Source: Thermoplasmata archaeon
GTDB taxonomy: Archaea; Thermoplasmatota; Thermoplasmata; UBA10834
NCBI GenBank assembly: GCA_035529455.1
Contig: DATKWQ010000052.1
Span: 5,966 to 69,965 of the forward strand
DNA: 64,000 nt
Reading direction: 5' to 3'
Below are positions 11,205-58,960 of this stretch, piece after piece (within the stretch, counting starts at the first letter, position 1; each line of letters opens with the position of its first letter). The notes beneath the pieces were generated by a model. It was not told where the DNA came from and made no database searches. It saw only the letters and a program-made list of their open reading frames with translations. The position numbers were made by a program, and so were the translations under genes.

Positions 11205-11506
11205 ATCGATACCTCCTTCAGGTGCTCACGCACCATCATCATTCACGGGCTCCTTCGATTCAAAAGAGCAAATGGCAGTAGATGGTCGTTGTATAAAAGG
11301 GTTGCTGAGCACGGCGCGCGCTACATGCATCCGCCTGGGAGGCATGTGATGGTGGTGTATTGAAACTAACGCCTCCGCAGCATTGGATTGAATATCTCGT
11401 CCAGGGAGTCGCCGTTCAGGTAGAACGCCATGATCAGAAGTACTGTGCATGCGCCAGGCTGCGAGAAAGTATATCTTGTGCCGCATTGCTCACCTTCTTG
11501 GTGCAC

Positions 11507-18695: not shown

Positions 18696-19086
18696 TGTTC
18701 GCCCCCGCCTGAAGCAGTCCTCGTGCGAAGTCGCGTCGCGTCTCCGCCTCTCCAGAGCTCCTTCCTGTTTCGGCTGCGCCCCCGACCCGCGAGGGCGCTT
18801 GCTTTCAAGAGCCACCCCATCCATAGCTGCATCTGTCTACTGGCGACCAGCGCAAACCGCGCTGCCAAGGGGATGGATCGACAGTCTCGGTATGGGGATA
18901 AATCCGCACGCCTTAAGAACGTTTCCCAGATACGAGGTCACAGACGTCTTCAGTCGGACTTCGGGCTATGGTATCCGACCGCACCACGTCCATAAATGTG
19001 CATGCGGAGACCATCGTCGGGGCGCGCAAACTGTTTTCACCAGGTAGTTCATTCGAGTCCGCGGACGGTCGTAGGCAGTGCGGCAG

Positions 19087-20211
19087 ATGAAAGTGACAAT
19101 GCTCACATACAGCACGAAGGCGCGTGGAGGCGTTGCCCACGCCCTGAAATTGTCCGAGCATCTTCACGGGAAAGGCGTCGATGTGGTCGTCCACTCATTG
19201 TGCAGGGACGATGACACTGAACCGAAACGATTCTACAGGGAAACCGATGTCCCCCATGTCATCCACGAGTACCGCTGGGACGACGATGTAATGACCCGGC
19301 TTGAGCGCATGATCGCCGCCTATGCAAAGGGGCTTCCGACGGACTCGGATATCTATCACGCGCAGGACTGCGTCGGAGGGACCGCGCTCTCGCGGCTTAA
19401 GACGGGCGGAGCTCTGGACGCGCCAGTGTTCAGGACGGTCCACCATGTGGACGATTTTGCTGAGCCCAGGCTGTTCGCTTTCGAGAAGACGGCGGTCAGT
19501 CAGGCGGACTACCTCTTCGTCGTCTCCGAGTATTGGAGGGCCGCACTCAAGAGGGACTACGGCCTTGACTCGGTCGTTGCTCTCAATGGCATTGACCTCG
19601 AAGACTTCAGTTCCGTCCCGAATAGGAGAACCAAGCACCCTACAATCCTCTTCGTCGGAGGGCTCGAGCCGCGCAAGGGGCTCGAGTATCTCATCCTGGC
19701 ATTACCAGATATCCTTGAGGCCGTTCCGGACGCAACGCTTCGGATCGTTGCCAAGACCGGGTTCCGGGGAGTCGACAAGCTCGAGTGGTTCGAGCTCCTG
19801 GCCGAGAGGGCCGGGGTGGATGGTAGCGTCGAATTTCTCGAGTCGGTCGATCAACAGGAGCTATTGCAGCTCTATTCCGACGCGGACGTCGTCGTCCTTC
19901 CATCCAGAAACGAAGGATGGGGACTGTCACTGATGGAGGCCATGGCACTCCTGAAACCTGTGGTCGCCACGCGCGTGGGAGGGGTACCCGAGCTTGTCAG
20001 GGACGGCGTCGACGGAATCCTAGTCGACCCCGGGGACATCAAAGGCATCGCCAGGGCCATTGCGAAGCTGTTGACCGATCCGGCCCTCCGGTGCCTGATG
20101 GGAGCGGCCGGTCGCCAGCATGTCGCTCGGCACAGCTGGGAGAATACTGCTAAGCTCACACTGAAGGAGTACGAACGCAGCCTCAACCTGACAGACCATA
20201 CTCGTCCATGA
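19087..20211 (+). CDS. glycosyltransferase, GT4 family (GT-B fold)
   Basis: The C-terminal half carries the EGWGLSLMEAMA....GG.PE E-x7-E motif of retaining GT4 enzymes. Confidence 0.85.
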   Translation: MKVTMLTYSTKARGGVAHALKLSEHLHGKGVDVVVHSLCRDDDTEPKRFYRETDVPHVIHEYRWDDDVMTRLERMIAAYAKGLPTDSDIYHAQDCVGGTALSRLKTGGALDAPVFRTVHHVDDFAEPRLFAFEKTAVSQADYLFVVSEYWRAALKRDYGLDSVVALNGIDLEDFSSVPNRRTKHPTILFVGGLEPRKGLEYLILALPDILEAVPDATLRIVAKTGFRGVDKLEWFELLAERAGVDGSVEFLESVDQQELLQLYSDADVVVLPSRNEGWGLSLMEAMALLKPVVATRVGGVPELVRDGVDGILVDPGDIKGIARAIAKLLTDPALRCLMGAAGRQHVARHSWENTAKLTLKEYERSLNLTDHTRP

Positions 20212-30696: not shown

Positions 30697-31262
30697 AGAA
30701 AGCTCAAACGGTACCGGCGAACTGCACGGCGTGTCGGTTGAGCGGGACGCGCACCAATGTCGTTCCTGGAAATGGGCCGTCGAGATCGAAGATATTGTTC
30801 ATAGGGGAGGCGCCTGGAAGAGACGAGGACTTGAGAGGGGAGCCTTTCGTTGGAAGCGCAGGGAAGACTCTGAACCAAGCTCTCGCAGACCTTGGGGTAT
30901 CCCGCGAAGACGTCTATGTAACGAACATAGTCAAGTGCAGACCTCCAGGAAACAGACGACCTGCACGAGACGAGATAGACGCGTGCGTTGGATACCTCTG
31001 TGCCGAGGTCCATCGGGCCGGGCCTTCCGTGATATGTCTCCTGGGCCAGACCGTCGCTCGCGAGCTGCTCGGGCACAATGGCAAGATGTCGGACATCGTG
31101 GGAGAAGTCGTGGATGCCAAAATCTGCGGGTCCGACGTGAAGTGCGTGGTTGCATACCACCCAGCGGCGTGCCTGTACCGTCGGGCAAACTTCGACTCGT
31201 TTCGCGAGTCCATTGCGATGGGACTCAAGCTCGCGGGCATCGAAGGGGGCCGGCCGCAATGA
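30693..31262 (+). CDS. uracil-DNA glycosylase, family 4
   Basis: GEAPG.DED motif (GEAPGRDEDLRGEPFVGSAG), Cys ligands for the 4Fe-4S cluster, and a HPAA-like motif (YHPAA). Confidence 0.9.
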   Translation: MKKAQTVPANCTACRLSGTRTNVVPGNGPSRSKILFIGEAPGRDEDLRGEPFVGSAGKTLNQALADLGVSREDVYVTNIVKCRPPGNRRPARDEIDACVGYLCAEVHRAGPSVICLLGQTVARELLGHNGKMSDIVGEVVDAKICGSDVKCVVAYHPAACLYRRANFDSFRESIAMGLKLAGIEGGRPQ

Positions 31263-33133
31263 GAGACTGGCGAGTCCTGTTGCCTGTAACATTCTCGCTT
31301 CTGGTGCTTTTGACTTCAACCCCTCACGTCATGGCGGACGTCGAGGATGAAGGCGCAGCTCAGTTGGAGAGCTGGACGTTCATGATATACATGGCCGCTG
31401 ACGTGACGGACACGCTTCCTTGGGAAGCGGACATAAACGAGATGGAGGCGGCAGATCAGGCGGAGAATGCGAACATCATAGTGCTTGTGGACCCGCCAGG
31501 CATGGCGAACACCATGCTGTTGAAGATAGAGCATGACGACAATCATTTCGACCCAGAGATAGTCTCAACCACCATCGACGACCTGGGTGAGGTGATACCC
31601 GGTGGGGGAGAGGTCAACACAGGCTCCCCAGCGGTCCTGAGGGACTTCATATTGTTCTCCGCGACGGAATACCCCGCTGACCGCCTCGTATTGGTCCTAT
31701 GGGGACACGGAGCGGGATGGAGAGGTCTGTGTCCCGATGGCACGGACCTGCTGACACTGCCAGAGTTGGGGGCGGCCCTGGCGATGGCGGAGGCGACGCT
31801 CGACCGACGACTTGACATGCTTGTTCTGGACGTCTGCAATGGAGCAACCATGGAGCTCGCGTATGAGATATCGGAGCATGCCGACTTCCTCGTCGGCAGC
31901 GAACTCAACGTGCCGGCGGAAGGGTTGCCCTATGCGGATGTGTTCAACGCATTCTCTGAGGATCCTTGGCAATCGACGAACGCTTTCGGCGAGGCGATAG
32001 TCGACTCGTATGTCGAATGGGCGGAATACGGTTCATCCCACGCGACCGTTGCATGCCTCCTTGACCTCTCCAGAGTGGACGATACTGTGGAAGCTCTGGA
32101 CTCGATGTCGGAGCTGGGGTTGATATTCAACCGGCTCTACCACTCGGCGATGACGGCCGCTGTCCATTCCTCTGAGCATTGCGAGGACGAATGGTCCGTG
32201 GACTTTGGCGCCCTGTGCGGCGAGCTTTGCGCGGAAGACCTTCCAATTGAGGTCAAGGTCGCCTCAATGGATGCTGCAAGAGAGTACCTCCTCGCTGTCA
32301 AGCACTACGCGGAAACGAACACCGATGAGCTGGATGGCGCCACGACCACCGGGTTATCACTCTATTGCCCGTCGAGCGTCTCCGATACTGGCTACCTTGA
32401 GCTCCGCATATCCCAGACACTGTGGACGAATCTCTCGTTCAGGCTTCATGAAGACATCGCCCTGCAGGCCCAGGGCCCCGGCCCTGAGTTGACGTTAGGG
32501 GATTCCTCGGTCGGTGGCGAGAACATTCTAGATTTCGCGACACTGACATGGAACCCGGATGCAGAATGGAACTACACCAGCTACATGGTAAACGTCTTTC
32601 GCATCGAACCAAACGGATTAGTGGCATGCCAGACGATACTGGCTGTGAACCCCGTAATCCGCATCATGGATGTCATCGGCGATCTCTGGATATCCGCTTC
32701 GGGGTGCATCGGCGGCGAAGCGTACTCCAACCACCTGCGTCAGTGCACCCTATCAAGGCTCGTGACGGTGGAAGTGATTGTCAGCAGCCTGCCCGAGACT
32801 TACGACGGAGACATCGGAGTCATGATCAGCTCAGACATCAATGATTTCATGATTTTCAGATGTGAAGACAATGTCTGCACCGTTCTGTTCACAGCTCCGG
32901 ACTGGGCGAATATCGGAGGGATAGTCACATTGCGACTTATCGACCTCACAAACAGGAACATTCTGTCAGAACAAAGAACGCTTGTTTCTGGGGAGGACAT
33001 GGTCGTGACTTTGAACGTCCACATGACGACTGCAGAGACCATCGAATCCGAGATACTCCTCGGATTCGTCGCAATGATAACCATTCTCTGCGTGGCGGCC
33101 GTCGTCTACGTCAACCTGCTGCGGAGGAGATGA
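31259..33133 (+). CDS. clostripain-like cysteine peptidase (C11 family), secreted with C-terminal TM anchor
   Basis: Signal peptide, C11 block WTFMIYMAAD, a catalytic His in VLWGHGAGW and a catalytic Cys in VLDVCNGATME. A C-terminal hydrophobic helix precedes RRR. The start overlaps the UDG stop (ATGA). Confidence 0.75.
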   Translation: MRDWRVLLPVTFSLLVLLTSTPHVMADVEDEGAAQLESWTFMIYMAADVTDTLPWEADINEMEAADQAENANIIVLVDPPGMANTMLLKIEHDDNHFDPEIVSTTIDDLGEVIPGGGEVNTGSPAVLRDFILFSATEYPADRLVLVLWGHGAGWRGLCPDGTDLLTLPELGAALAMAEATLDRRLDMLVLDVCNGATMELAYEISEHADFLVGSELNVPAEGLPYADVFNAFSEDPWQSTNAFGEAIVDSYVEWAEYGSSHATVACLLDLSRVDDTVEALDSMSELGLIFNRLYHSAMTAAVHSSEHCEDEWSVDFGALCGELCAEDLPIEVKVASMDAAREYLLAVKHYAETNTDELDGATTTGLSLYCPSSVSDTGYLELRISQTLWTNLSFRLHEDIALQAQGPGPELTLGDSSVGGENILDFATLTWNPDAEWNYTSYMVNVFRIEPNGLVACQTILAVNPVIRIMDVIGDLWISASGCIGGEAYSNHLRQCTLSRLVTVEVIVSSLPETYDGDIGVMISSDINDFMIFRCEDNVCTVLFTAPDWANIGGIVTLRLIDLTNRNILSEQRTLVSGEDMVVTLNVHMTTAETIESEILLGFVAMITILCVAAVVYVNLLRRR

Positions 33134-33138
33134 CGTCT

Positions 33139-33810
33139 TCAGAATCGCTTCTTGAACAGGAACTTCAGGTTTCCAAGACCATCCTTCCAGCTGTTCAGTT
33201 TCACCTCGCCTATCCTCATCCGATAGGTGATGGGGACCTCAACGGCACGTGATTTCCTGAACGCCTCGATCTTGATCTCCTCGGACATGGCCATCGCATC
33301 GCTATTCAAATCCATCGACGCGAGGAGGGTGCGTCTGAAGACCCACATGCCACTCTGAGAATCCTTAACCCTCACTCTGAACAGGACCCGGGCGGTAACC
33401 GAGAGCATCCAGTTGCCCAGGCGATGCTTCGCGCCCATCGCCCCCTTCTCCATGTTGGCGAACCGATTTGTTGTTATGAAATCGAGGTCCTTAGACACCA
33501 ACTCATCCGCAAGACGTGGTATCTCAGATGCCGGATAGGTCATGTCGGCGTCGAGCGTCGCGATTATGTCACCGCTCGCGCGTGCAAAACCGGTCTTGTA
33601 CGCGCGTCCGTACCCGCGCCGTGGCTCCTCCACAACGATGGCGCCGAGCGAAGACGCTATCTCCCTGGTCCTGTCCTTTGAGTTGGTGTCCACGACGAGT
33701 ATTTCGAAAGGGCGTTCTCCGAAAGCTTCCTTGACCTCGGCTATGACAAGGCCGACGCTCTCCTCCTCGTTCATAGTCGGTATTACGATAGAGACCGTCT
33801 GTTCTGACAC
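33139..33810 (-). CDS. glycosyltransferase family 2 (dolichyl-phosphate hexose synthase-like)
   Basis: GT-A fold with SIVIPTMNEE and DTNSKDRT (DxD-type) motifs. 223 aa. Confidence 0.85.
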   Translation of the reverse strand: MSEQTVSIVIPTMNEEESVGLVIAEVKEAFGERPFEILVVDTNSKDRTREIASSLGAIVVEEPRRGYGRAYKTGFARASGDIIATLDADMTYPASEIPRLADELVSKDLDFITTNRFANMEKGAMGAKHRLGNWMLSVTARVLFRVRVKDSQSGMWVFRRTLLASMDLNSDAMAMSEEIKIEAFRKSRAVEVPITYRMRIGEVKLNSWKDGLGNLKFLFKKRF

Positions 33811-33814
33811 AACA

Positions 33815-34666
33815 TCATCTCCCGGGGAATATCAGTCTCCACCGCTTCCTGCCTTTTCTTTCTTCCTTCCCGCGCGACCAGTCCACATCGTCTGGCACAC
33901 GGTCCAGAAGCTTGCACATCAGATATCCGATGACGGCGACTGCCAACCGGGAAATCGCCCAGAACGACTTCGATGTCTCTATCAGACGAGTTGGTTTGTA
34001 CGAAGACCAGAGATTGCCATGTTTCATCGTCAGCTGCTTTCGTCCCCAGCCGTTCCAGAACGCCTGCTTGAAGAACCCTTTGAAGCTGCCCTTCGTCCGA
34101 TGGTAGACTATGGCGTCAGGATTGACGCCGAACTTGTATCCCTTCTCCACTGCCCGCAGGTTCACGTCGATATCCTCAGCCGTGACAAACCACGGATCGA
34201 ACCCTCCGATGTCGTCCATCACTTGTCGTCTCCACGCCATGCTCGCGCTCGGATGCGAGATGTCGACGCCCCGGTGATACAGCTCAACCCTGTCGAGGTC
34301 CTCGAACGCGTGATACCCGATGTTGATCGTCTTACCTGCCACCACATCGTAGCTCTGGAGGGTTCTGCGCAGTTCGCGGATCCAGAACGGGTTCGCGATG
34401 CAGTCACCGCCAATGGTCGCTATGGCATCACCAGTGGCCATAGAGATGCCGTAGTTGGTGCTCTCGCCTCGTGTGCCTGGACAGTGGAAGTAACGGATGT
34501 TCTCGTGATTCTTGACATAAGACTCAATGACTGCGATTGTGCCGTCCCAACTGCCCGCATCTACCACCACAATCTCCAGCGGTCCCTCCTGCACGATGAG
34601 GCTGTCGAAGAGGTCCCTTACGTGTCTCTTCTCATTGAGAAGGTTGAGAATCACACTTATCTTCAT
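33815..34666 (-). CDS. glycosyltransferase family 2
   Basis: ISVILNLLNE...VVDAGSWDGT...AEDID: GT-A fold with a DxD motif. Confidence 0.85.
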   Translation of the reverse strand: MKISVILNLLNEKRHVRDLFDSLIVQEGPLEIVVVDAGSWDGTIAVIESYVKNHENIRYFHCPGTRGESTNYGISMATGDAIATIGGDCIANPFWIRELRRTLQSYDVVAGKTINIGYHAFEDLDRVELYHRGVDISHPSASMAWRRQVMDDIGGFDPWFVTAEDIDVNLRAVEKGYKFGVNPDAIVYHRTKGSFKGFFKQAFWNGWGRKQLTMKHGNLWSSYKPTRLIETSKSFWAISRLAVAVIGYLMCKLLDRVPDDVDWSRGKEERKGRKRWRLIFPGR

Positions 34667-34730
34667 GTCGATACGAATCCATCTGAAATGGTTCAGCCCT
34701 TATTATGATTTGCAGCGAGGATACGCCCCG

Positions 34731-36053
34731 TCACTTCATGCTGGCAGGCCCGTATCCTACGCCGAAGTACCGGGCTCCAGCTGCCTCGACCTTCTTCGGG
34801 TCTAGGCAACGCCTGCCGTCAACCACCACAGCGTTCCTCATCTTGGAGAACTGCTTCCTGCCAATCTTCCTGAACTCATCCCAATCCGCTTGTATCACGC
34901 ACGCATCGGCGCCTGCGAGCGCGTCATCGACAGACGATGCGAAGTTTATCGTGGGCATGAGTTCTATGAAGTTGGACATCGCCATCGGATCGAAGGCGAC
35001 CACCTCGACGCCGTTCGCCAGCAGACCAGCCACGAGCGGTACCGCGCGTGTATCCCTGACATCATCAACCCCTCCTTTGAATGAGAGGCCAAGCACGGCG
35101 ACCTTCAGACCCTTGATGTCTCCGAATACCCTCTTGAGAGTCAACACGGCCTCGTTCGGCTGCTCATCGTTCACCTTCAGAATGGCGGTGAGCAGATGCG
35201 CCGGGTAATCCATCCCGCGCGCCTTGTGTCTGAGGGCCCTGACGTCCTTTGGCAGACAGCTTCCACCGAACCCAAGGCCGGGCTTCAAGAAGAGCGATCC
35301 TATCCTCGGATCCTTCCCTGTGGCTGTGAGCACCACCTCAGAATCGATCTCCAGCCGTTGACATATGTTGGCAATCTCGTTCGCATAAGTTATCTTCGTC
35401 GCCAAGAAGGAGTTCGAAGCGTACTTGATCATCTCCGCCGTCCTCAGGTCAGTCTTGAACCTGTCGCCTTCGATGGGGGCGTACAGCTTCATCAACGCGT
35501 CGCCAGCGCGCTTGTCGGAAGCGCCCACGACGATCCTCGAAGGCTCCATACTGTCTTTGAGGGCGCTCCCTTCCTGAAGGAACTCCGGATTCATGCAAAG
35601 GCCGAAATCATTTCCGGCGGACTTGTCCGAACCCGCCTCGAGTATCTCCTTGACGACCGTGTCCGTGGTGGACGGTATGACCGTGCTCTTCACTACGACC
35701 ACCTTGTAGTCTTCGGTTCTGACCAATGCCCGGGCCACATCACGGCTCGCTGACTTGAGCGCGCGTATGTCTATCTTGCCAGAGTCCAGCGATGGCGTCT
35801 GCACACAGATGAATATGAACTTGGATTCGGCCGAGGACCCAATGACATCCTTGGAGGCCGTGACCGCCCCGGTCTTCACCAGTCGCGCGAGCTCCTTCTC
35901 CAACGGAGGCTCGTAGAACGGGGCGCGGCCAGCGTTCACATCCCTCACGCGACGGCAGTCGACATCGGCGCACACGACCCTGTGCCCCAACTTGCCAAAC
36001 ATGACCGCGGTGGCGAGGCCAACGTAACCCGCTCCGATCACACATATGCGCAT
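34731..36053 (-). CDS. nucleotide-sugar 6-dehydrogenase (UDP-glucose / UDP-GlcNAc 6-dehydrogenase family, WbpA-like)
   Basis: N-terminal GAGYVG Rossmann motif, a catalytic Cys (GFGGSCLPKD) and the central and C-terminal UDPG-DH domains. Confidence 0.9.
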   Translation of the reverse strand: MRICVIGAGYVGLATAVMFGKLGHRVVCADVDCRRVRDVNAGRAPFYEPPLEKELARLVKTGAVTASKDVIGSSAESKFIFICVQTPSLDSGKIDIRALKSASRDVARALVRTEDYKVVVVKSTVIPSTTDTVVKEILEAGSDKSAGNDFGLCMNPEFLQEGSALKDSMEPSRIVVGASDKRAGDALMKLYAPIEGDRFKTDLRTAEMIKYASNSFLATKITYANEIANICQRLEIDSEVVLTATGKDPRIGSLFLKPGLGFGGSCLPKDVRALRHKARGMDYPAHLLTAILKVNDEQPNEAVLTLKRVFGDIKGLKVAVLGLSFKGGVDDVRDTRAVPLVAGLLANGVEVVAFDPMAMSNFIELMPTINFASSVDDALAGADACVIQADWDEFRKIGRKQFSKMRNAVVVDGRRCLDPKKVEAAGARYFGVGYGPASMK

Positions 36054-36146
36054 GTTGGGCGAGACTCCATCTTGCGGTTATAACACTTTTCATATCTGGC
36101 GGAAGACGGCAAAGGATTATATCACCAGTTCATGTTCATTTCCACA

Positions 36147-37004
36147 ATGAAAGTCGTTATTCCCGCCGCGGGCCTTGGCACGAGGTTCCTGCCTGCCACA
36201 AAGGCACAGCCGAAGGAGATGCTGCCTGTCGTCGATAAACCGACCATACAGTATGTCGTCGAGGAGGCGGTCGAATCGGGCATGACGGACATCATAATCA
36301 TCACTGGCCGTGGCAAACGGGCGATAGAAGACCACTTCGACAGATCATACGAACTCGAGCACCGGCTCATGAAGTCGGGGAACACGGAAGCACTGAATGA
36401 GATCAAGAACATCGCGTCGATGGCGGACATATTCTACATACGTCAGAAGGAGCAGCTTGGGCTCGGCCATGCGATATTGTGCGCCAAGAAGCATGTGGGC
36501 CACGAGCCATTCGCGGTCATGCTTGGGGATGATATAGTCGTGAACGACAAACCATGCATGTCCCAGCTCATGAAGGTACACGAGCAAAAGGACCACGCCT
36601 CGGTTGTTGGGGTGGAAACCGTACCCGAAGCGCTGATATCCAGATACGGAGTAATCAAGGGCGTCAAGGAGACCGATGACGTCTACCAAATTCAGGACCT
36701 GGTCGAGAAGCCATCAGCTGAGAACGCGCCGTCCGACCTAGCGATCATAGGAAGATACATCTTCGAGCCCAAGATATTCGACCATCTGGAGAAGACTGGG
36801 CTCGGGGCGAACGGCGAGTACCAGCTAACGGACGCGATGCGGGCACTGTGCAAGGACAGACGACTCTATGGCCTGAAATTCACTGGCCGGCGATTCGACA
36901 TCGGGAGCAAGGTCGATTGGATAAGGGCGACCGTCGAACTGGGCATGGAGAGGGCAGATCTCGCGCCGGAGCTGAGACCCGCCCTCGAGAAGATTTTGAG
37001 ATGA
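36147..37004 (+). CDS. galU: UTP--glucose-1-phosphate uridylyltransferase
   Basis: VIPAAGLGTRFLPATKAQPKEMLPVVDKP signature. Start trimmed to MKVVIPAAG. Confidence 0.9.
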   Translation: MKVVIPAAGLGTRFLPATKAQPKEMLPVVDKPTIQYVVEEAVESGMTDIIIITGRGKRAIEDHFDRSYELEHRLMKSGNTEALNEIKNIASMADIFYIRQKEQLGLGHAILCAKKHVGHEPFAVMLGDDIVVNDKPCMSQLMKVHEQKDHASVVGVETVPEALISRYGVIKGVKETDDVYQIQDLVEKPSAENAPSDLAIIGRYIFEPKIFDHLEKTGLGANGEYQLTDAMRALCKDRRLYGLKFTGRRFDIGSKVDWIRATVELGMERADLAPELRPALEKILR

Positions 37005-37086
37005 CGCGCCAGCACACCCGTCTATGGCGGAACTCTGATAGGGTTTAGCTCCACAATGTATTATAGCTAGGGATGGCTTCTGGCAC

Positions 37087-37566
37087 GTGCTGGTGAGCAG
37101 GGTGAAGCTCCTCGCAAAATATCATTCCATAGAGGACTGCGAAATCGGTGAGGATACTGTTGTAAGGGATTTCGTCAACCTCTACGGCTGCAGGATTGGC
37201 AAGGGCTGCAAAATCGCAGCTTATGTCGAGATACAACGAGACGTCGTTGTCGGAGACCGATGCAAGATCGAGGCGTTCGCATTCATACCATCTGGGGTCA
37301 CCATCGAGGACGAGGTCTTCGTGGGCCCCCACGCATGCTTCACCAACGACCGCACGCCCAAGGCCGTCGGCGAGTGGTCGGTGACGCCTACCGTGGTGAA
37401 GAAGGGGGCCTCCATCGGGGCCAACGCGACGATCATATGTGGCGTGACGATCGGCGAAGGCGCCTTCGTGGGTGCGGGGGCGGTGGTTACGAAGGACGTG
37501 CCCCCGAACGCGAAGGTCGCGGGAAACCCCGCGAAGGTTATCGGAACGAGGAACCATCGGAATTGA
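37087..37566 (+). CDS. hexapeptide-repeat sugar N-acetyltransferase (WbpD/PglD-like)
   Basis: LbH repeats throughout. GTG start. Sits between galU and the DegT aminotransferase. Confidence 0.75.
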
Positions 37567-37582
37567 ACGGCCATTTGGAGAG

Positions 37583-38677
37583 ATGTGGATGAAAGTACCA
37601 TTGGCACAACCGGTAATGACGGAAAGCATGGTGGAGGCGGCGGCGAACGCCCTCAGGAACGAACGGCTCACAATGGGCGAGAGCATGTTCAAGTTCGAGG
37701 AAGCGTTCGCGAAGATGTGTGGTGTGAAGCACGCAGTGTCAGTCAACTCTGGAACCGCAGCGATCCAACTCTCACTCCTCGCGGCTGGATTGAAGGCCAA
37801 GGACACATTCCTGACGTCTTCGATGTCATTCGTGGCAACGACTAACGCCTTCGTGGCTTTCGGTGGAGTACCCGATTTCGCGGACGTCCTGGAGTCTGAA
37901 TACACCATCGACCCCTCGAAGATCAAGATAACTCCTGGGACAAAGGCGATAATCCCAGTCCACCTCTACGGTCATCCCTCGCGGATGGACGAAATAAACG
38001 AGATCGCCAAAGACGCTGGCGTGCTCGTGCTCGAGGACGCGTGTCAGGCGCATGGCGCGCTGTACAAGGGAAAGCGTGCCGGGGCGCTGGGGGACATCGG
38101 ATGCTTCTCGTTCTACCCCACCAAGAACATGCATGTCGGAGGCGACGGGGGGATGGTCACTACAGACGACAGCGACGTGGCCGAACTCGTGAAGAGGCTG
38201 AGACACTGCGGCAGGAAGGGGCAGTACGAGCATGACATCATCGGCTACACGGCTCGTCTGAACAGTGCGAACGCTGCGGTCGGCCTTGAGCAGCTCAAGA
38301 TGCTGGAAGGGTGGAACGACAAGCGGAGAGGCGTCGCGGCGAAGTACCACAGTCGGTTGAAGGACCTGGACGGCCTGGGACTGCCTCCGCAGCCAACCAG
38401 CGACGTGTCACCGGTCTATCATCTGTACACAGTCAAGACGACGCAGAGAGAGAAACTGAGAGCACATCTCGACGGTGCGGGTGTGCAGACGGGCGTGCAT
38501 TACGAGATCCCGATACACCTGCAGCCAATCTACAAGGAGATGTATGGATACAAGGAGGGTCTGTTGCCAGTGACAGAACGGCTGTGCAAGGAGGTCATGA
38601 CGCTGCCGATGTTCCCAGACATGACTGACGAGCAGGTATCCTACGTATGCGAAAATGTGAGCGAGTTCTACGGATAG
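37583..38677 (+). CDS. DegT/DnrJ/EryC1/StrS-family PLP-dependent sugar aminotransferase (WbpE-like)
   Basis: PLP Lys in FSFYPTKNM, DegT family architecture, 360 aa. Confidence 0.9.
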   Translation: MWMKVPLAQPVMTESMVEAAANALRNERLTMGESMFKFEEAFAKMCGVKHAVSVNSGTAAIQLSLLAAGLKAKDTFLTSSMSFVATTNAFVAFGGVPDFADVLESEYTIDPSKIKITPGTKAIIPVHLYGHPSRMDEINEIAKDAGVLVLEDACQAHGALYKGKRAGALGDIGCFSFYPTKNMHVGGDGGMVTTDDSDVAELVKRLRHCGRKGQYEHDIIGYTARLNSANAAVGLEQLKMLEGWNDKRRGVAAKYHSRLKDLDGLGLPPQPTSDVSPVYHLYTVKTTQREKLRAHLDGAGVQTGVHYEIPIHLQPIYKEMYGYKEGLLPVTERLCKEVMTLPMFPDMTDEQVSYVCENVSEFYG

Positions 38678-38688
38678 GGCGATACATC

Positions 38689-39636
38689 ATGGGCGATTTC
38701 AGTGTCGGTGTGATAGGAGCGGGATATTGGGGCAAGAAGATCGTCGACGAGTACTCGAAGATGGATGATGTCCGACTCGTCGGAATCTCAGACCTGGACC
38801 AGAAGAACCTCGATTTCTGCGCAGAGAGGTTTGGAGTCAAGAATGGATACCGGGATGCGGAGCAGCTCCTTTCGCAGAAAGGGTTGGACGCCGTGAACGT
38901 CTGCACACCGAACTCGTCACACTACGAGATATGTAAGATGGCTCTGGAGATGGACAAGCATGTCCTCGTCGAGAAGCCGATCACCGTGACTTCGGCAGAT
39001 GGATGGAAGCTCGTCAAGATGGCCCAGGACAAGGGATTGACGCTCTCGGTCGGCCACATATTCAGGTTCAACAACGCCCTCGCGAAGATACGCGAGTTGA
39101 TCAAGGAGAGGTACTTCGGCAACCTGTTCCTCATGGAGATGACTTGGACCAACCTAGAGAAGTCCTGGCCTGACAGGGATGTGCTGTTGGACCTTGCACC
39201 TCACATGTTCGACATCCAGAACTACCTTCTCGACAAGTGGCCTGTGGAGGTGTCGTGCTCCGGAACCCCCTCGAGAAGGGAATCGGGCGAGGAGACCGCA
39301 TACATCGTCTCCTCCTTCGAAGATGGCCTAATGGCGATGGCGAACATCAGCTGGCTTGTTCCCCGCAAGACCAGGCAGATAATGCTAGTGGGGGAAGCGC
39401 GCTCGGCTCTGATCGACGCCGTCTCGCAGGAAGTCATGGTGTACGAGAGCGGGTACACATACAAGCTGGGAATCGAGCGAAACAACACGATCCGAGACGA
39501 GCTCGAGCAGTTCCTGAGGTCGGTCGCAGACCCTGAGACGGAGACGAAGAACAGCGGCACCGTGGGCGTCCGCACCGTCGAACTGATAGAGGCCTCCAAA
39601 CGCTCCATCGCCGAGAAGAAGACTGTAGCGCTGTGA
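38689..39636 (+). CDS. Gfo/Idh/MocA-family NAD-dependent oxidoreductase (WbpB-like sugar 3-dehydrogenase)
   Basis: N-terminal GVIGAGYWG Rossmann motif and the EKP motif (VLVEKPIT). Start trimmed to MGDFSVGV. Confidence 0.85.
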   Translation: MGDFSVGVIGAGYWGKKIVDEYSKMDDVRLVGISDLDQKNLDFCAERFGVKNGYRDAEQLLSQKGLDAVNVCTPNSSHYEICKMALEMDKHVLVEKPITVTSADGWKLVKMAQDKGLTLSVGHIFRFNNALAKIRELIKERYFGNLFLMEMTWTNLEKSWPDRDVLLDLAPHMFDIQNYLLDKWPVEVSCSGTPSRRESGEETAYIVSSFEDGLMAMANISWLVPRKTRQIMLVGEARSALIDAVSQEVMVYESGYTYKLGIERNNTIRDELEQFLRSVADPETETKNSGTVGVRTVELIEASKRSIAEKKTVAL

Positions 39637-39660
39637 TGGTCAAAGCGTCTTGCAGCGCAC

Positions 39661-40827
39661 ATGTTTATAGTGGCTGAGAGGATTCACCAGCCGATGCTTT
39701 CGACACTGATGCTTCTCTCTAATCCCTACCGCCCTGACCCTCGCGTATTGAGGGAGGCGCGCGCGCTCATCGGGGCGGACGTGACGGTTCGTCTGGTCGC
39801 GTGGGATAGAGACGGAGGCCGACCATCACCGTCGACTGAGGAGGGTGTTGAGGTCCTCAGAGTCGGCCCCAGAGCCTCCTATCGGTCCGTCTCAGAGGTG
39901 GTACCAGGGCTCCTTCGCTTCTGGTACAGGGCATTCCGCATAGCAAGGAATCTTGATTTCGACGTCGTCCACTGCCACGACTTCGACACGCTTCCGCTTG
40001 GGGTACTCCTTGCAAGGCTACGCAGAAAACCACTGATACTGGATGCGCATGACATCTACTCGCTGATGATCGTGGGAGAGTCCTCGATCGCCGGCAGGAT
40101 GCTGTGGCCTCTCGAGAGGTGTATGGCATCCAAAGCTGACGTACTCATCACCACGAACGAAGCGATGGCTGGGATGCTGTCGGCAAAGAGGACGAAGAGC
40201 TCAGTCATAGTCAGGAACAGCCCCGACCTGTCCGCACTGGCAGGAAGCACCATCGAGGATACTCGGAAACGACACGGTCTGGCGGGTTTCGTTGTCTCGT
40301 ACTTCGGATCGCTCGAACCGGGAAGAGCCGTGGAGGAGCTGGCGACATCGTTCTCGACGGACGATGGGATCAGTGTGATAATCGGAGGAAGCGGAACCCT
40401 GCAATCTGTCGTGGAGAAGGCGAGTGAGAGCAGCTCAGTCGTTCGTTTCTTGGGCAACATCGAGACTGATGAGGTGCTTAAAATCACCTGTGCCAGCGAC
40501 CTTATCCCGGTTATGTACGACCCGTCGAACCCGAAATATCGGATATGCACTCCAATAAAGGTCCTCGAGGCAATGGCTTGTGGAAAGCCAGTCGTCGCGG
40601 CAAAGGGGCTGGACATCTCCGAGATGATAGAGAGAGTCGGCTGTGGCTTCGTAATCGATTACAGTCGGGAGAATCTCGCCCGGACTGTCCGCGAGGCTTC
40701 GAAGTCGAGTGGGGAACTTCAAGAGATGGGGAAGAGAGGGAAGGCGCACTTCGAGAAGAACCTGGCGTGGGAGACTTCGAGGAGCGCACTGCTCGGGGTG
40801 TATAGGGCCCTCGGAGGCCTCACATAG
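39661..40827 (+). CDS. glycosyltransferase, GT4 family
   Basis: GT-B fold with C-terminal E-x7-E (VLEAMACGKPVVA). 388 aa. Confidence 0.85.
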   Translation: MFIVAERIHQPMLSTLMLLSNPYRPDPRVLREARALIGADVTVRLVAWDRDGGRPSPSTEEGVEVLRVGPRASYRSVSEVVPGLLRFWYRAFRIARNLDFDVVHCHDFDTLPLGVLLARLRRKPLILDAHDIYSLMIVGESSIAGRMLWPLERCMASKADVLITTNEAMAGMLSAKRTKSSVIVRNSPDLSALAGSTIEDTRKRHGLAGFVVSYFGSLEPGRAVEELATSFSTDDGISVIIGGSGTLQSVVEKASESSSVVRFLGNIETDEVLKITCASDLIPVMYDPSNPKYRICTPIKVLEAMACGKPVVAAKGLDISEMIERVGCGFVIDYSRENLARTVREASKSSGELQEMGKRGKAHFEKNLAWETSRSALLGVYRALGGLT

Positions 40828-49186: not shown

Positions 49187-50587
49187 ATGGGATATGTCCG
49201 ATTTAGAGATATTATGACCCAGGAAGACGTCGTCCCTCGACTTTTCGGCACCAACGGAGTCAGAGGAGTCGTGAACACGGAGGCCATGGACTGCAGATTC
49301 GCAATGCGGCTGGGCATGGCCATCGGCACATTCATGGATGGGGCGGTCGTCATAGGGTCCGATGCGCGCACATCGAGCGAGATGCTCAAATCCGCCTGCG
49401 CGGCGGGGATGATGGCGACCGGCTGTGATGTCCAAGACTGTGGCATCGTTCCGACACCGACCGTCCAGTACGCGGTCAAGGTCGATGACGATATAGCTGG
49501 CGGAGTGGTCATAACCGCCTCACACAATCCACCAGAATTCAACGGCATCAAATGTGTGGACAGAGACGGTACGGAGATGGCCCGCTCCAACGAGGAGAAG
49601 GTCGAAGCCATATTCCACAGACAGGCGTTCTCGGCCGTGCCCTGGGACCGCGTTGGGCATTCCTCTCCTCGGGTCGGCGCCATAGAGGACTACTCCGAAG
49701 CGATACTGGCGCTCATCGATAGGGACTTGATCAAGGCGTCTGGCTTGAGGGTCGCACTGGATTGCAGCAACGGGGCGGGAGCCAATGTGACACCAGGCAT
49801 CCTGGAACGACTCGGAGTCAAATACGTCACCATGAATGCTGATCTGAACGGTGCGTTTCCAGGGCACAACAGCGAGCCCACGCCGGACAACGCCAAGGAT
49901 CTCGTAGAGCTTGTCAGACAGGGGGAATACGACCTTGGGATTATCCACGACGGGGACGCGGACCGTACAATATTCGTAGATGACAAGGGGTCGTACATGT
50001 ATGGGGACAGAAGCCTAGCGATAGCTGCTCACTATGCTTGCCTGGACAATGGCGGCGGACTCGTCGTCACCACAGTAGGATCATCCAGATGTGTGGAGGA
50101 CGCAGTCACCGCGGCTGGCGGGACTGTGATGTACACGCGTGTAGGCTCTCCGGTCGTCGCAAGGGCGATGATGCAACATGGCGCCGTATTCGGAGGCGAG
50201 GAGAACGGCGGGTTGATCTTCCCCGAGCTGCAGTTCTGCAGGGACGGGGCCATGGCAGCGGCAAGAATCATCGAGATCGTAGCCAAACACGGCCCGATGT
50301 CTAAGATCCAGTCCAATATCCCTGCATATTCGCAGTTCAAGACGAAGACCCCGTGTCCGGGCGACATGAAGGAGTCTGTCATGAAGGGGCTCGCCGCCGG
50401 TGCGGAAGGAGAGAGGGTAGACACGACAGACGGGGTCAAGATATACTTCGATGATGGCTGGGTGCTCATCAGACCCTCCGGGACGGAACCGATTGTGCGC
50501 ATCTTCTCCGAGGCGAGCACCGATGACAAGGCAAGAGCGATAGCCGAACGATTCAGAGAAAGGGTCGCGAAGCTCGCAGAAGGATGA
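49187..50587 (+). CDS. glmM: phosphoglucosamine mutase / phosphomannomutase (archaeal GlmM-type alpha-D-phosphohexomutase)
   Basis: Active-site Ser loop TASHNPPEFNGIK and metal-binding DGDADR. Confidence 0.9.
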   Translation: MGYVRFRDIMTQEDVVPRLFGTNGVRGVVNTEAMDCRFAMRLGMAIGTFMDGAVVIGSDARTSSEMLKSACAAGMMATGCDVQDCGIVPTPTVQYAVKVDDDIAGGVVITASHNPPEFNGIKCVDRDGTEMARSNEEKVEAIFHRQAFSAVPWDRVGHSSPRVGAIEDYSEAILALIDRDLIKASGLRVALDCSNGAGANVTPGILERLGVKYVTMNADLNGAFPGHNSEPTPDNAKDLVELVRQGEYDLGIIHDGDADRTIFVDDKGSYMYGDRSLAIAAHYACLDNGGGLVVTTVGSSRCVEDAVTAAGGTVMYTRVGSPVVARAMMQHGAVFGGEENGGLIFPELQFCRDGAMAAARIIEIVAKHGPMSKIQSNIPAYSQFKTKTPCPGDMKESVMKGLAAGAEGERVDTTDGVKIYFDDGWVLIRPSGTEPIVRIFSEASTDDKARAIAERFRERVAKLAEG

Positions 50588-54167: not shown

Positions 54168-54268
54168 CTCCATATCTCGAGTATGATTGTGGCCAACCGC
54201 CCATGAATGGGAGGCCTAGGCGACATTTATATAGAGCAGAAGGCGTCGGTTTCGCCAAGTGGTTTGAA

Positions 54269-56320
54269 ATGCGGGGAATCTCAAGACTCCCGGCAAGCCT
54301 GGTCGGATTCATGGTCATCATCACGACAGTGGCCATCGTCGCGAGCTCGCTCCCTGGGAATTCCAGCACAGCTAATCTGTCAACGGTCTCAATACAGGCG
54401 GAGTCAATGTGCCTCCTCTATGGCTGGGTGAATGATTCGATAACTCACGAAGGCGTGAGTGGGGCGACGGTCTTCTACATTTCGATGGAGGAGTTCTCAA
54501 CAAACCAAACCCTGACTGACGAGACAGGCTACTACGAAGCGCAGGTCGATCAGTCAGCCCTGTTCGTGCAGTGTTACAAGACCGGGCATTTCCCAGTCAC
54601 AGTGGCGATAAACACCACGGGAGAGGACGAGTATCGGCAGGACTTCGAACTGGAGGCCGAGCCGACGGTGCCTGAGGTTTCGATGGCCATCGACCCTGAA
54701 CGCAACATATCGGCCCACAACCCCCTGACGGTCAGCATTGTCGTGGAGGACTATAACCTGATTCTTGTAGAGGTCATCATGGGACAGGTACACAACAGAA
54801 CGGGCGATTGGGTCAATTTCACAACGGCAACCGCTGCGGGGGCCTTTATGTTTTCAGACTCCGTTGTTGACGGTATGTACTTCGAATACACCTATGAGGA
54901 CGATGTGTTCGAGGGGACTGCCGAATGGTACGCGAAGTCGACTCGTTCAGGATACCTGGTCAACGAGACATCGAGCGATTACAGTCAGGCATATGCCAAA
55001 CGGACGATTATGGGAGACGTCAGCTACGGTTTCGCCTGCTATTACTTCAACGACACCCTCTCGATGGAGGAGGGGATAGCATACTTCGACAACGACACGG
55101 GGGAGTACGAAGGGTTTGAGTCCCAGAGCCTCACGTCGGTCTTCGAGGACCCATCCATCCCGGATGCACCCGCGGATGACCCCTTCGGGGAGATCGCCCC
55201 GGTCTCGATCGTAATTCCATGGAAGCTGAACACCACCATGACCTTCGAGGAATACATGACGCTCACTGGCAACTTCGTCTGCAAGGACCGGAGGAGCGTT
55301 GCCGGGCTGACGTTCGAGTACGACGAGACCGTTCCCAGTGGTGAGTACGTCGCGATGGTCTTTGCGATAGACGACGCATTCAACCTCAACGGGACGGTTG
55401 GCCTTCTGACCGTCGACACCGACGACCCCATCGCATACGCCGGTGAAGACTCCACAATCGGGATTGGCGACGAGGCGACCTTGACAGGAGCGGCCTCCGA
55501 TAACGTCGGAGTGGTCAACTACACATGGGCCATCGAGGACGACGGTACGGAAGTCACCTTGCACGGAGAAGTCGTCTCCTACGAGTTCATCGATAAGGGC
55601 GAGCATGTCGTCACTTTGACCGTGCGCGACGGCGCGAACAACGAGGGCTCGGACACGGCGATCATCACGGTCGCCGACATCACAGACCCGACAGCAGACG
55701 CAGGCGAGGACATGGATGTCCTCATAGGCGAGACGTTCACGCTGAACGGCACGGGGTCTTACGATGACATAGGGATAACGGCGTACCTATGGTCGTGCGA
55801 TGAGCTAGACGGCTGGGACGAGAGTGGAGCCGAGGTGGAGATGACGCTCGACTCCGAAGGTGAGTACACCTTCACGCTCGAGACGAGGGACGCTGCGGGC
55901 AACTCCGACACCGATGACGTCATCGTCTACGTCACCGACCCGAACGAGGCGCCTGTCGCCGATGCGGGGACCGACCTTGAGATATCTGTCGGGGAGACGG
56001 CCGACCTCGACGGGTCGGGTTCGTCCGATGACGCGGGCATAGAGAACTACACCTGGACTTTCGAGTATGACGGAGAGACGGTGACGCTGTATGGGGAGAC
56101 CGCTGAATTCACATTCGACATCGAAGGCGAGTACACGGTAAACTTGACCGTCTCTGATGAGCAGGGGGAAAAGGGGTACGACCAGGTCGTGGTCACGGTG
56201 ACGAAGGGCGAGACCGTCACGGGTTACGCACTATACGCCGCCGCAATAATCATCGTGTTGGTGGTTGCCATTCTGGCCGTCGTGCTCATAAGGCGCAGGA
56301 AGCTCGTAGGCTCCTCCTGA
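54269..56320 (+). CDS. cell-surface protein: signal/TM anchor, CarboxypepD_reg-like domain, three tandem PKD domains, C-terminal TM + basic tail
   Basis: N-terminal hydrophobic segment, a beta-sandwich segment (GATVFY...TDETGYYEAQV), 3x ~87-aa repeats (DAG.D..V.VGET..L.G.GS.DD.GI.NYTW) and a C-terminal helix + RRRK. Start trimmed to the ATG at 54269 so that it clears the tRNA. Confidence 0.75.
   Translation: MRGISRLPASLVGFMVIITTVAIVASSLPGNSSTANLSTVSIQAESMCLLYGWVNDSITHEGVSGATVFYISMEEFSTNQTLTDETGYYEAQVDQSALFVQCYKTGHFPVTVAINTTGEDEYRQDFELEAEPTVPEVSMAIDPERNISAHNPLTVSIVVEDYNLILVEVIMGQVHNRTGDWVNFTTATAAGAFMFSDSVVDGMYFEYTYEDDVFEGTAEWYAKSTRSGYLVNETSSDYSQAYAKRTIMGDVSYGFACYYFNDTLSMEEGIAYFDNDTGEYEGFESQSLTSVFEDPSIPDAPADDPFGEIAPVSIVIPWKLNTTMTFEEYMTLTGNFVCKDRRSVAGLTFEYDETVPSGEYVAMVFAIDDAFNLNGTVGLLTVDTDDPIAYAGEDSTIGIGDEATLTGAASDNVGVVNYTWAIEDDGTEVTLHGEVVSYEFIDKGEHVVTLTVRDGANNEGSDTAIITVADITDPTADAGEDMDVLIGETFTLNGTGSYDDIGITAYLWSCDELDGWDESGAEVEMTLDSEGEYTFTLETRDAAGNSDTDDVIVYVTDPNEAPVADAGTDLEISVGETADLDGSGSSDDAGIENYTWTFEYDGETVTLYGETAEFTFDIEGEYTVNLTVSDEQGEKGYDQVVVTVTKGETVTGYALYAAAIIIVLVVAILAVVLIRRRKLVGSS
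55425..56210 (+). repeat. three tandem ~260-bp intragenic repeats encoding the PKD domains
   Basis: Protein-level repeats: IAYAGEDSTIGIGDEATLTGAASDNVGVVNYTW / ADAGEDMDVLIGETFTLNGTGSYDDIGITAYLW / ADAGTDLEISVGETADLDGSGSSDDAGIENYTW. Confidence 0.6.
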
Positions 56321-56560: not shown

Positions 56561-57160
56561 ATGAACAGGAAGACGGCTTTCAAGAAGTTCCCAGAGATCA
56601 GGACTAAGCGCCTGATTCTCAGACAGCCATCGATGAAGGATGTCGAATGGTACTTTGAGTACTTCTCAAGGCCTGAGATTGTCTGGGGAGGAGGAGAACC
56701 CGGTCCGAAGGACATGGCCGTGGCCAGGGAAGAGTACAGGGAGTACTTGGTCGACCTGTACCGGAAGAGGCGGGGATTCCGATGGGTTATGACACTTAAG
56801 GGAGAAGGTCAGCCGATTGGCACGTTGGGCTTCTACAAGTGGGCCCCCTCCGCGAGCTATCAGGCCGAGATGGGCTATGACCTGGCAAATGAGCACTGGG
56901 GCAAGGGCATAATGAGCGAGGCGATGAGAGCTGTTATCGACTTCGGCTTCGAGAAGATGGAGCTGAACAGGATAGAGGTCTACATCATGCCTCGGAACAA
57001 GCGTTCGATCAGGATGATCAAGAGCCTCGGGTTCAAGAAGGAGGGGCTGCTCAGGCAACGTTATTTTGACGAGCTCGGCAACTTCGCCGACGATATTCTC
57101 TTCTCGATGCTAAGAACCGACTGGGAAGAGTTGAGAACCGACTGGAAAGAGAAGAGATGA
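56561..57160 (+). CDS. GNAT-family N-acetyltransferase (RimJ/RimL-like)
   Basis: Acetyl-CoA-binding motif (HWGKGIMSEAMRAVIDFGF) and an RimL-like N-terminus (RLILRQPSMKD). Start trimmed to MNRKTAF. Confidence 0.8.
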   Translation: MNRKTAFKKFPEIRTKRLILRQPSMKDVEWYFEYFSRPEIVWGGGEPGPKDMAVAREEYREYLVDLYRKRRGFRWVMTLKGEGQPIGTLGFYKWAPSASYQAEMGYDLANEHWGKGIMSEAMRAVIDFGFEKMELNRIEVYIMPRNKRSIRMIKSLGFKKEGLLRQRYFDELGNFADDILFSMLRTDWEELRTDWKEKR

Positions 57161-57720
57161 TTCTAAGAGGTTGGGCCACCCCACCTCTAAGCCAGCTATT
57201 CGACTTCAGACATCTTTCAGGGCATTCCAGCGTCAACACACTGCGAGTAGATGCATCGGCAATGATTATCAATGAGAATACATTTCACGGCCTCGTGGAC
57301 GACGACAGGCTTCGGCGCATCACTGCATCCTACGGCGTCATCGTCGGCGTGATGATGATAGCCCAGTGGACGGGATTCATAATCATGGGACGGGTGGAGG
57401 AGCTCGAGTCGGAGCCGACAAGGATTGCATTCCATCTTGCCGCCGAGCTCGGCACCGCCATTGCGCTGATAATCGGCAGCATAGGCCTCGCCAAACGCCT
57501 GGGCTGGGGCTACCCCGCATTCCTCGTTTCACAAGGAATGTTGGCCTACACCATCATCATCAGCCCAGGTTACTTCGCTCAGGATGGAGAGCTGCTTTTC
57601 GTCGGCATGTTCGCGGTCCTCTGGGTCATGACCATCGCAATCGTCGTGACAGCGGTCAAGCACGAGGCGGCACTCAGGGGCGGCGGACAGATGAATGACT
57701 CAGTCAGTGAAGAAGACTGA
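57157..57720 (+). CDS. hypothetical membrane protein (4 TM)
   Basis: Overlaps the GNAT stop (ATGA), which suggests translational coupling. Hydrophobic helices. No homology recognised. Confidence 0.45.
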   Translation: MILRGWATPPLSQLFDFRHLSGHSSVNTLRVDASAMIINENTFHGLVDDDRLRRITASYGVIVGVMMIAQWTGFIIMGRVEELESEPTRIAFHLAAELGTAIALIIGSIGLAKRLGWGYPAFLVSQGMLAYTIIISPGYFAQDGELLFVGMFAVLWVMTIAIVVTAVKHEAALRGGGQMNDSVSEED

Positions 57721-58805: not shown

Positions 58806-58960
58806 GTACCCAGCCCGGTATTGAGAATATGTACTATTGAGCTTTTGCCTATGGTTTCCATAGTAAGAAATATGTAGACTCCAGCGCATGAGACCACTGC
58901 GACAACGACTGTGAGAACGCAATTCGCTGACGCAACAGGAACGGTCAATTCTGAACTCTG

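Follow-up and report, generated by a model that had tools for sequence, protein, structure and literature searches.

A syntenic Thermoplasmata glycan locus pairing a predicted UDP-glucuronic acid module with a predicted 2,3-diacetamido-sugar module

The window analysed here, a 64,000-nucleotide stretch of DNA from a Thermoplasmata archaeon, contains at 33139-40827 a locus of eight genes for nucleotide-sugar synthesis and glycan assembly. A first-pass annotation, made from the letters alone, had read four of the enzymes as the WbpA-WbpB-WbpE-WbpD route from UDP-N-acetylglucosamine (UDP-GlcNAc) to the 2,3-diacetamido-2,3-dideoxy-hexuronate UDP-GlcNAc3NAcA. In our analysis one half of that reading stands: the evidence for a 2,3-diamino sugar with two N-acetyl groups is good, while these genes do not show its uronic-acid form. 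We give roughly even odds (about 50%) to a locus of two modules. In the first, a UTP-glucose-1-phosphate uridylyltransferase (GalU) and a dehydrogenase of the UDP-glucose 6-dehydrogenase (UGD) type would make UDP-glucuronic acid (UDP-GlcA). In the second, a trio of a Gfo/Idh/MocA oxidoreductase (Gfo), a DegT aminotransferase, and a left-handed β-helix (LbH) N-acetyltransferase would make UDP-2,3-diacetamido-2,3-dideoxy-glucose (UDP-GlcNAc3NAc). Three glycosyltransferases would then assemble the glycan. The analysis established the presence and order of the genes, their families, the clade placement of the four sugar-modifying enzymes, synteny, and conserved promoter boxes.

The proposed chemistry is as follows. 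GalU would make UDP-glucose, and the UGD-type dehydrogenase would oxidise it to UDP-GlcA. The Gfo enzyme would oxidise UDP-GlcNAc at C3, the DegT enzyme would transaminate the resulting 3-keto sugar, and the LbH enzyme would N-acetylate the 3-amine to give UDP-GlcNAc3NAc, in line with the chemistry of MMP0352/0351/0350 and of GnnA/GnnB. A family 2 glycosyltransferase (GT2) resembling AglJ and DPM would load a hexose onto dolichyl phosphate (Dol-P), and a second GT2 together with a family 4 glycosyltransferase (GT4) would add the acidic and the di-N-acetylated sugars to a lipid-linked or protein-linked glycan. The enzyme substrates, the pairing of glycosyltransferases with donors, and the acceptor (N-glycan, S-layer, pilin, or glycolipid) are predictions.

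The dehydrogenase and GalU

The nucleotide-sugar dehydrogenase is probably a UGD-type UDP-glucose 6-dehydrogenase rather than a WbpA-type enzyme. Among NCBIfam models, AglM and TuaD give it 448 and 384 bits, versus 217 bits for the archaeal UDP-ManNAc dehydrogenase model (WecC) and 117 bits for TviB; it also reaches 441 bits on TIGR03026, for which the cutoff is 189.8. The best matches in the PDB are the UDP-glucose dehydrogenases 3gg2, 4a7p, and 3vtf (277-291 bits, 37-39% identity), and enzymes of the UDP-ManNAc/GalNAc type give 146-179 bits. The catalytic segment, GFGGSCLPKDVRAL, carries the cysteine motif GFGGSCLPKD, which fits GGxC(F/L)PKD; WbpA belongs to the group of dehydrogenases with a GGHC catalytic motif. 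Close cluster members of the enzyme bear the Joint Genome Institute (JGI) label 'UDPglucose 6-dehydrogenase'. The WbpA-like identity put forward in the first pass is therefore not retained: profile scores, PDB ranking, the GGSCLPKD motif, and the JGI names all place the enzyme with UDP-glucose dehydrogenases. The first pass had named such a grouping among two outcomes that would refute its model; the second, an aminotransferase of the 4-amino type, was not observed.

The same PDB ranking bears on another possible substrate. A GDP-mannose 6-dehydrogenase making GDP-mannuronic acid could explain the 240-bit score of AlgD (1mfz, GDP-mannose dehydrogenase) and would fit a nucleotidyltransferase 10 kb downstream whose best model is mannose-1-phosphate guanylyltransferase (223.8 bits, cutoff 440). 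However, AlgD aligns with residues 1-356 only, the UDP-glucose dehydrogenases align along the whole protein with better scores, and the immediate divergent neighbour of the dehydrogenase gene is galU. We regard a GDP-mannose substrate as very improbable.

The GalU assignment of the first pass holds. The protein scores 384.9 bits on TIGR01099, above the equivalog cutoff of 326.8 bits and over profile positions 2-261 of 261, and its NCBI name is also GalU. Its gene lies across a conserved gap with two TATA-like boxes from the dehydrogenase gene. GalU would supply the substrate that a UGD needs. The two enzymes are more simply read as a UDP-GlcA module.

The gap itself measures 78-93 bp, depending on the GalU start. 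It contains TTATAA at 36078-36083 and ATTATAT at 36116-36122, each about 27 nt from the start codon that it faces. In three related Thermoplasmata loci (L005-L007 of our comparison set) neither box changes, nor does the ATG at 36147, whereas the flanking bases and an upstream ATG at 36132 vary. The GalU start is the ATG kept in the relatives, 36147. We infer that the gap holds two back-to-back archaeal promoters; because each box lies about 27 nt from a start codon, they probably yield leaderless mRNAs. A scan for σ70 promoters and terminators returned nothing above shuffled expectation and is not applicable to an archaeal host. In a fourth relative (L008, about 6570-7490) the gap appears to be about 900 bp, not about 90 bp, which points to inserted sequence between the two promoters.

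The C3 amino-sugar trio and the alternatives

The oxidoreductase matches one NCBIfam model above all others, NF040723 (archaeal UDP-GlcNAc 3-dehydrogenase), with 201 bits across its full length and the runner-up at 100 bits. Among 52 diverse representatives of the oxidoreductase family (alignment A2), the best NF040723 match has E = 2.2e-69, estimated at roughly 230 bits. By these scores, the enzyme is best placed in a sister group of the NF040723 (MMP0352-type) family, not as an equivalog. Its second-best PDB match is GnnA (7bvj; 77.5 bits, 23% identity), while the WlbA entries 3q2i and 3q2k reach 48-49 bits and also fall below many inositol-type dehydrogenases. No Pseudomonas aeruginosa WbpB entry was recognised among the best 60 PDB sequences. 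An AlphaFold 2 model (predicted local distance difference test score 91) was compared with the PDB by Foldseek, which confirmed 7bvj as GnnA and returned Gfo-family enzymes all at about 1e-25, with no discrimination among them. Close homologues (66-96% identical) carry the JGI label 'UDP-N-acetylglucosamine 3-dehydrogenase'. Of the WbpB-like oxidoreductase proposed earlier, the C3 oxidation of a sugar nucleotide is probably shared, but the type is that of GnnA and MMP0352, not that of WbpB and WlbA. WbpB and WlbA use 2-oxoglutarate to recycle NADH; enzymes of the GnnA/MMP0352 type are not expected to do so.

The aminotransferase probably falls in the sugar 3-aminotransferase clade of DesV, QdtB, and WbpE. 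Its PDB ranking is 7b0d (302 bits), 2oga (273 bits; we take this entry to be DesV), QdtB (247 bits), and WbpE (216 bits, over the full length). The higher matches that we recognised are 3-aminotransferases as well, in keeping with the WbpE-like call of the first pass. Known 4-aminotransferases, which would have pointed to a different sugar, score only 110-185 bits: perosamine synthase and ArnB give at most 185 bits, 2fn6 gives 114 bits, and 1o61 gives 110 bits. The last two are PseC and PglE.

The LbH protein would acylate nucleotide sugars at their 3-amine. In the PDB it is closest to FdtD-like 4mzu (124 bits), 7s43 (108 bits), WlbB (3mqg, 103.5 bits), and QdtC (75 bits), all 3-amino-sugar N-acetyltransferases. 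The place of WlbB among them agrees with the WbpD-like N-acetyltransferase named in the earlier annotation.

These rankings raise a dTDP-sugar alternative, in which the aminotransferase and the acetyltransferase serve a pathway to a dTDP-3-acetamido-3,6-dideoxyhexose (Qui3NAc or Fuc3NAc). The entries 2oga, QdtB, 4mzu, 7s43, and QdtC are among the top named matches; we take them to be dTDP-sugar enzymes, and for the most part they rank slightly above WbpE and WlbB. Against this, no RmlA, RmlB 4,6-dehydratase, or 3,4-ketoisomerase turned up in Pfam scans that covered essentially the whole window, and the locus has a Gfo 3-dehydrogenase instead, the mark of the direct C3-oxidation route of UDP-sugars. 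On that absence among the scanned ORFs (open reading frames) the dTDP pathway was rejected, and we hold it to be extremely unlikely.

The trio was traced through 80 loci of other organisms, each with a relative of the oxidoreductase. In most of them the Gfo, LbH, and DegT genes lie side by side, and this holds in numerous phyla of bacteria and several groups of archaea. Among the 52 representatives, three are fusions of the oxidoreductase with an acetyltransferase, the fused domain being an LbH domain of the NeuD/PglB/VioB type; several members of about 430-505 aa in the alignment (e.g., P0123, P0137, and P0157) are fusion candidates. In an Acidobacteriota metagenome-assembled genome (MAG; L021, 10001-17200), two full Gfo-LbH-DegT trios flank a UGD-type dehydrogenase (GFGGFCFPKD; TuaD 473 bits). 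In more distant Thermoplasmata a glycosyltransferase accompanies the trio, and both the dehydrogenase and GalU are missing; the order is LbH-DegT-Gfo-GT4 in the Methanomassiliicoccales locus L009 and LbH-DegT-Gfo-GT2 in L010. Because of these loci, the link between the trio and UGD/GalU is specific to the lineage of the window. The trio is thus a widespread self-standing module, independent of a UGD-type dehydrogenase. GalU beside the trio is absent from nearly all other loci. In Bathyarchaeia, the Gfo gene lies downstream of GlmU-like and GlmM-like genes.

Where a dehydrogenase does adjoin the trio outside the lineage of the window, it has the GGHC motif in six of eight loci: Methanosarcina L057, Micrarchaeota L069, and the bacterial loci L040, L065, L070, and L076. 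The three of these enzymes that were scanned (L057, L065, and L076) score 245-292 bits on WecC versus 142-176 bits on AglM, the reverse of the window enzyme.

Several points weigh against the two-module reading. An equivalog-level cutoff is reached by GalU and by an off-cluster phosphoglucosamine mutase (GlmM) only: the dehydrogenase has 448 of the 670 bits required for AglM, the oxidoreductase 201 of the 450 bits required for NF040723, and the first GT2 141.7 of the 325 bits required for AglJ. To these belong the 240-bit AlgD score given above, the placement of GalU at the head of the same co-directional group as the trio, where UDP-glucose could feed the trio, two bacterial loci (L021 and L031) in which a UGD-type dehydrogenase is paired with the trio, and the proposal, without biochemistry, of a Ugd-like protein of Porphyromonas gingivalis as a WbpA equivalent (PMC4031482).

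The last two points bear on a single pathway, in which all four enzymes lead from UDP-GlcNAc to UDP-GlcNAc3NAcA and the UGD-type enzyme is a non-orthologous substitute for WbpA or MMP0353. The dehydrogenase would act either first, on UDP-GlcNAc, or last, on UDP-GlcNAc3NAc, and GalU would only supply glucose to a glycosyltransferase. The four activities are tightly clustered and co-conserved in the lineage of the window, and di-N-acetylated glucuronic acids are known from Methanococcus and Methanoculleus N-glycans (PMC11407970; PMC2952790). L021 and L031 would provide parallels, as would P. gingivalis UgdA, for which the WbpA homology was proposed on homology and a partial phenotype (PMC4031482). 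However, the scores and the motif of the window dehydrogenase are those of a UDP-glucose dehydrogenase and GalU adjoins it, the trio-side dehydrogenases carry the GGHC motif in Methanosarcina, in Micrarchaeota, and at four loci of bacteria, and other Thermoplasmata keep the trio without this dehydrogenase. We consider the single pathway rather unlikely. The related and slightly less probable proposal is that a UGD-type enzyme was recruited in this lineage in the place of WbpA or WecC for a 2,3-diacetamido (or 3-acetamido) hexuronic acid. If so, a core locus would specify an undescribed acidic di-N-acetylated envelope glycan of an uncultured archaeal lineage.

The position of GalU fits a further alternative, in which the trio acts on UDP-glucose or UDP-GlcA and yields UDP-3-acetamido-3-deoxy-glucose or its uronate by kanosamine-type chemistry. 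GalU leads the co-directional LbH-DegT-Gfo group, the oxidoreductase lies under the UDP-GlcNAc 3-dehydrogenase equivalog cutoff, and it resembles 6jw6 (KanD2; 67.6 bits), a kanosamine-forming 3''-dehydrogenase. On the other side, the best characterised relatives of the oxidoreductase (NF040723 and GnnA) use UDP-GlcNAc, nearly all other trio loci are without GalU, the Bathyarchaeia Gfo gene follows GlmU-like and GlmM-like genes, and a GlmM gene lies syntenically nearby in the window. This substrate choice appears improbable, and the two-module reading, with UDP-GlcNAc as the trio substrate, is preferred.

Glycosyltransferases, gene layout, and genomic setting

The first GT2 (Pfam Glycos_transf_2, 96 bits) has as its best NCBIfam models AglJ (TIGR04182, 141.7 bits) and the haloarchaeal Dol-P-hexose transferase (113.5 bits). 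Its best PDB match is the Pyrococcus Dol-P-Man synthase 5mlz (73.9 bits), followed by ArnC. By hydropathy, it has no predicted transmembrane (TM) segment and lacks the C-terminal TM part. The second GT2 has a weak C-terminal hydrophobic segment at residues 236-254 and only weak NCBIfam matches (e.g., MftF, 80.8 bits, and AglG glucuronosyltransferase, 44.6 bits). The NCBIfam and PDB matches of the GT4 are weak as well. It is the most divergent member of the locus (44-57% identity, versus 65-84%, in relatives), and a GT4 still follows the trio in Methanomassiliicoccales L009.

ORF listing and Pfam and NCBIfam scans confirmed eight ORFs in the locus (Table 1), with the coordinates, order, and families given in the first pass. 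Two details of that description were revised. It had seven consecutive genes and one divergent gene; the actual layout is a pair of diverging, operon-like groups, three minus-strand and five plus-strand genes, around the gap at 36054-36146. It also counted four glycosyltransferases, of which three are in the interval (two GT2 and one GT4), GalU being a nucleotidyltransferase. A further GT4 at 19078-20211 (+), 13 kb upstream and near the MSMEG_0565 family (240.5 bits, cutoff 259.85), lies outside that interval and may have been the fourth.

Table 1. Features of the locus and the off-cluster GlmM gene
Feature	Coordinates	Strand	Basis or remark
GT2 glycosyltransferase, 223 aa	33139..33810	-	polyprenyl/dolichyl-phosphate sugar synthase type (AglJ/DPM1/ArnC-like)
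Second GT2, 283 aa	33815..34666	-	Pfam Glycos_transf_2, Glyco_tranf_2_3, Glyco_trans_2_3
Nucleotide-sugar 6-dehydrogenase, probably UGD type, 440 aa	34731..36053	-	all three UDPG_MGDP_dh Pfam domains
Shared divergent promoter region (predicted)	36054..36146	.	two TATA-like boxes
GalU, UTP-glucose-1-phosphate uridylyltransferase, 285 aa (290 aa from 36132)	36147..37004	+	TIGR01099
LbH N-acetyltransferase, 154 aa (159 aa from GTG 37087)	37102..37566	+	Hexapep Pfam; probably of the 3-amino-sugar kind
DegT-family pyridoxal phosphate-dependent sugar aminotransferase, 358 aa	37601..38677	+	DegT_DnrJ_EryC1 382 bits; probable 3-aminotransferase clade
Gfo/Idh/MocA NAD-dependent oxidoreductase, 315 aa, predicted nucleotide-sugar 3-dehydrogenase	38689..39636	+	NF040723
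GT4 (GT-B) glycosyltransferase, 388 aa, ends plus-strand group	39661..40827	+	Glyco_trans_4_4, Glycos_transf_1, related Pfam families
Archaeal-type phosphoglucosamine mutase GlmM	49187..50587	+	TIGR03990 Arch_GlmM 546.7 bits vs 439 cutoff

The same eight genes were found by independent gene callers on identical public metagenome contigs, and the proteins are in GenBank as HUV61504-HUV61511 of a Thermoplasmata archaeon MAG, with generic names already assigned. The locus is ordinary and already annotated, and every enzyme is from a well-known family. The window genes and the public MAG records agree on an archaeal host of the class Thermoplasmata; archaeal marker genes in the window include aIF5A, Nop5, aIF2-gamma, aIF5B, XPD, CarS, and SMC-ScpAB.

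The locus is preceded by genes for XPD, CDP-archaeol synthase, a phosphoribosyltransferase, a uracil-DNA glycosylase, and a surface protein of the clostripain family, and followed by those for SMC-ScpA-ScpB, a nucleotidyltransferase, PHO4, PhoU, and GlmM. The GlmM gene is about 8 kb downstream of the locus, past SMC-ScpA-ScpB, and keeps this position in L005 and L006; it is a possible source of precursor for the locus. Pfam scans of essentially all window ORFs, with the rest of the genome not searched, found no STT3/AglB, flippase, or second nucleotide-sugar dehydrogenase, which bears out the earlier statement that the window has no aglB.

The word 'island' used in the first pass does not fit the locus. 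Its guanine-plus-cytosine fraction, 0.55-0.58, does not stand out from that of the window as a whole. Together with the genes on either side, it is found in conserved order in four further Thermoplasmata genomes or contigs (L005, CP070732.1; L006; L007, CP070736.1; and L008), so that at least four genomes besides that of the window share the gene order. Protein identity to these relatives is 65-84% for seven of the eight locus genes, equal to that of the adjacent SMC (67-82%); the faster-evolving members are the GT4 (44-57%) and the neighbouring peptidase (32-49%). A horizontally acquired island was rejected on composition and synteny. We read it as a glycan-assembly locus that belongs to the core genome of an uncultured Thermoplasmata lineage and is passed on by vertical descent.

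Other genes of the window were noted in passing. The clostripain-family (Peptidase_C11) protein at 31259-33133 (+), syntenic in the relatives at the 32-49% identity given above, begins with a signal-like segment and has a TM anchor at its C-terminus; its gene is convergent with that of the first GT2 across a 5-bp gap. A 276-aa protein at 58961-59791 (+) contains a complete small-GTPase domain of the Ras family (Pfam Ras 116 bits, Roc 88 bits), and its gene is flanked by ORFs without a Pfam match (57157-57720, 57741-58988, and 59995-60750). A RACo-type reductive activator of corrinoid proteins is encoded at 11360-13417 (+; RACo_C_ter 315 bits). The gene at 54203-56320 (+) encodes 705 aa with three PKD domains, a protein probably at the cell surface.

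Comparison with known systems

The closest parallel for the predicted UDP-GlcA module is the Agl pathway of Haloferax volcanii, with the glucose-1-phosphate uridyltransferase AglF and the UDP-glucose dehydrogenase AglM (PMC3871713). There, the UDP-GlcA supply pair is clustered with a Dol-P-hexose GT2 and further GT2s (AglF, AglM, AglJ, and AglG; PMC3871713), an arrangement that the window would share. In NCBIfam, the window dehydrogenase also scores best on AglM and the first GT2 on AglJ, although both matches are below cutoff (448/670 and 142/325). Unlike the haloarchaeal AglF, the window uridylyltransferase is a bacterial-type GalU, which scores 139 bits on AglF. The window locus is without AglB, flippase, and methyltransferase; conversely, the halophile cluster is without a 2,3-diamino-sugar module.

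Such a module is known from Methanococcus maripaludis, where MMP0350 is required for diacetylated glucuronic acid (PMC2952790). The MMP0350-MMP0353 genes, which serve the archaellin and pilin N-glycan, share with the window an LbH acetyltransferase and a DegT aminotransferase, and their Gfo-family UDP-GlcNAc 3-dehydrogenase has a predicted counterpart in the window oxidoreductase. They differ in that the window oxidoreductase appears to belong to a sister family, the window dehydrogenase is probably UGD-type, and the window locus is without a 2-epimerase. This comparison was made through the NCBIfam archaeal model and published work. MMP0353 is presumably WbpA/WecC-like. The first pass also stated that Methanococcus uses the Pseudomonas route, and the title of a 2015 paper by Siu and colleagues supports this.

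With P. aeruginosa WbpA-WbpB-WbpE-WbpD and Bordetella WlbA-WlbC-WlbB, the window would share C3 oxidation, transamination, and N-acetylation. The window has no WbpA-type dehydrogenase, and its oxidoreductase is nearer to GnnA than to WlbA. The type of the partner dehydrogenase, UGD or WbpA/WecC, is worth checking before a uronic-acid product is predicted beside the trio.

In Acidithiobacillus ferrooxidans, the Gfo-family UDP-GlcNAc 3-dehydrogenase GnnA and, after it, the DegT transaminase GnnB convert non-oxidised UDP-GlcNAc to UDP-GlcNAc3N for lipid A (PMC11446377). By structure and by sequence, GnnA ranks with the best matches to the window oxidoreductase, although at only 23% identity, and the amine in the window would be acetylated by an LbH enzyme, not acylated by LpxA or LpxD. 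To our knowledge, archaea have no lipid A. The locus predicts a surface-sugar repertoire of glucose, glucuronic acid, and a 2,3-diacetamido sugar for this uncultured Thermoplasmata lineage.

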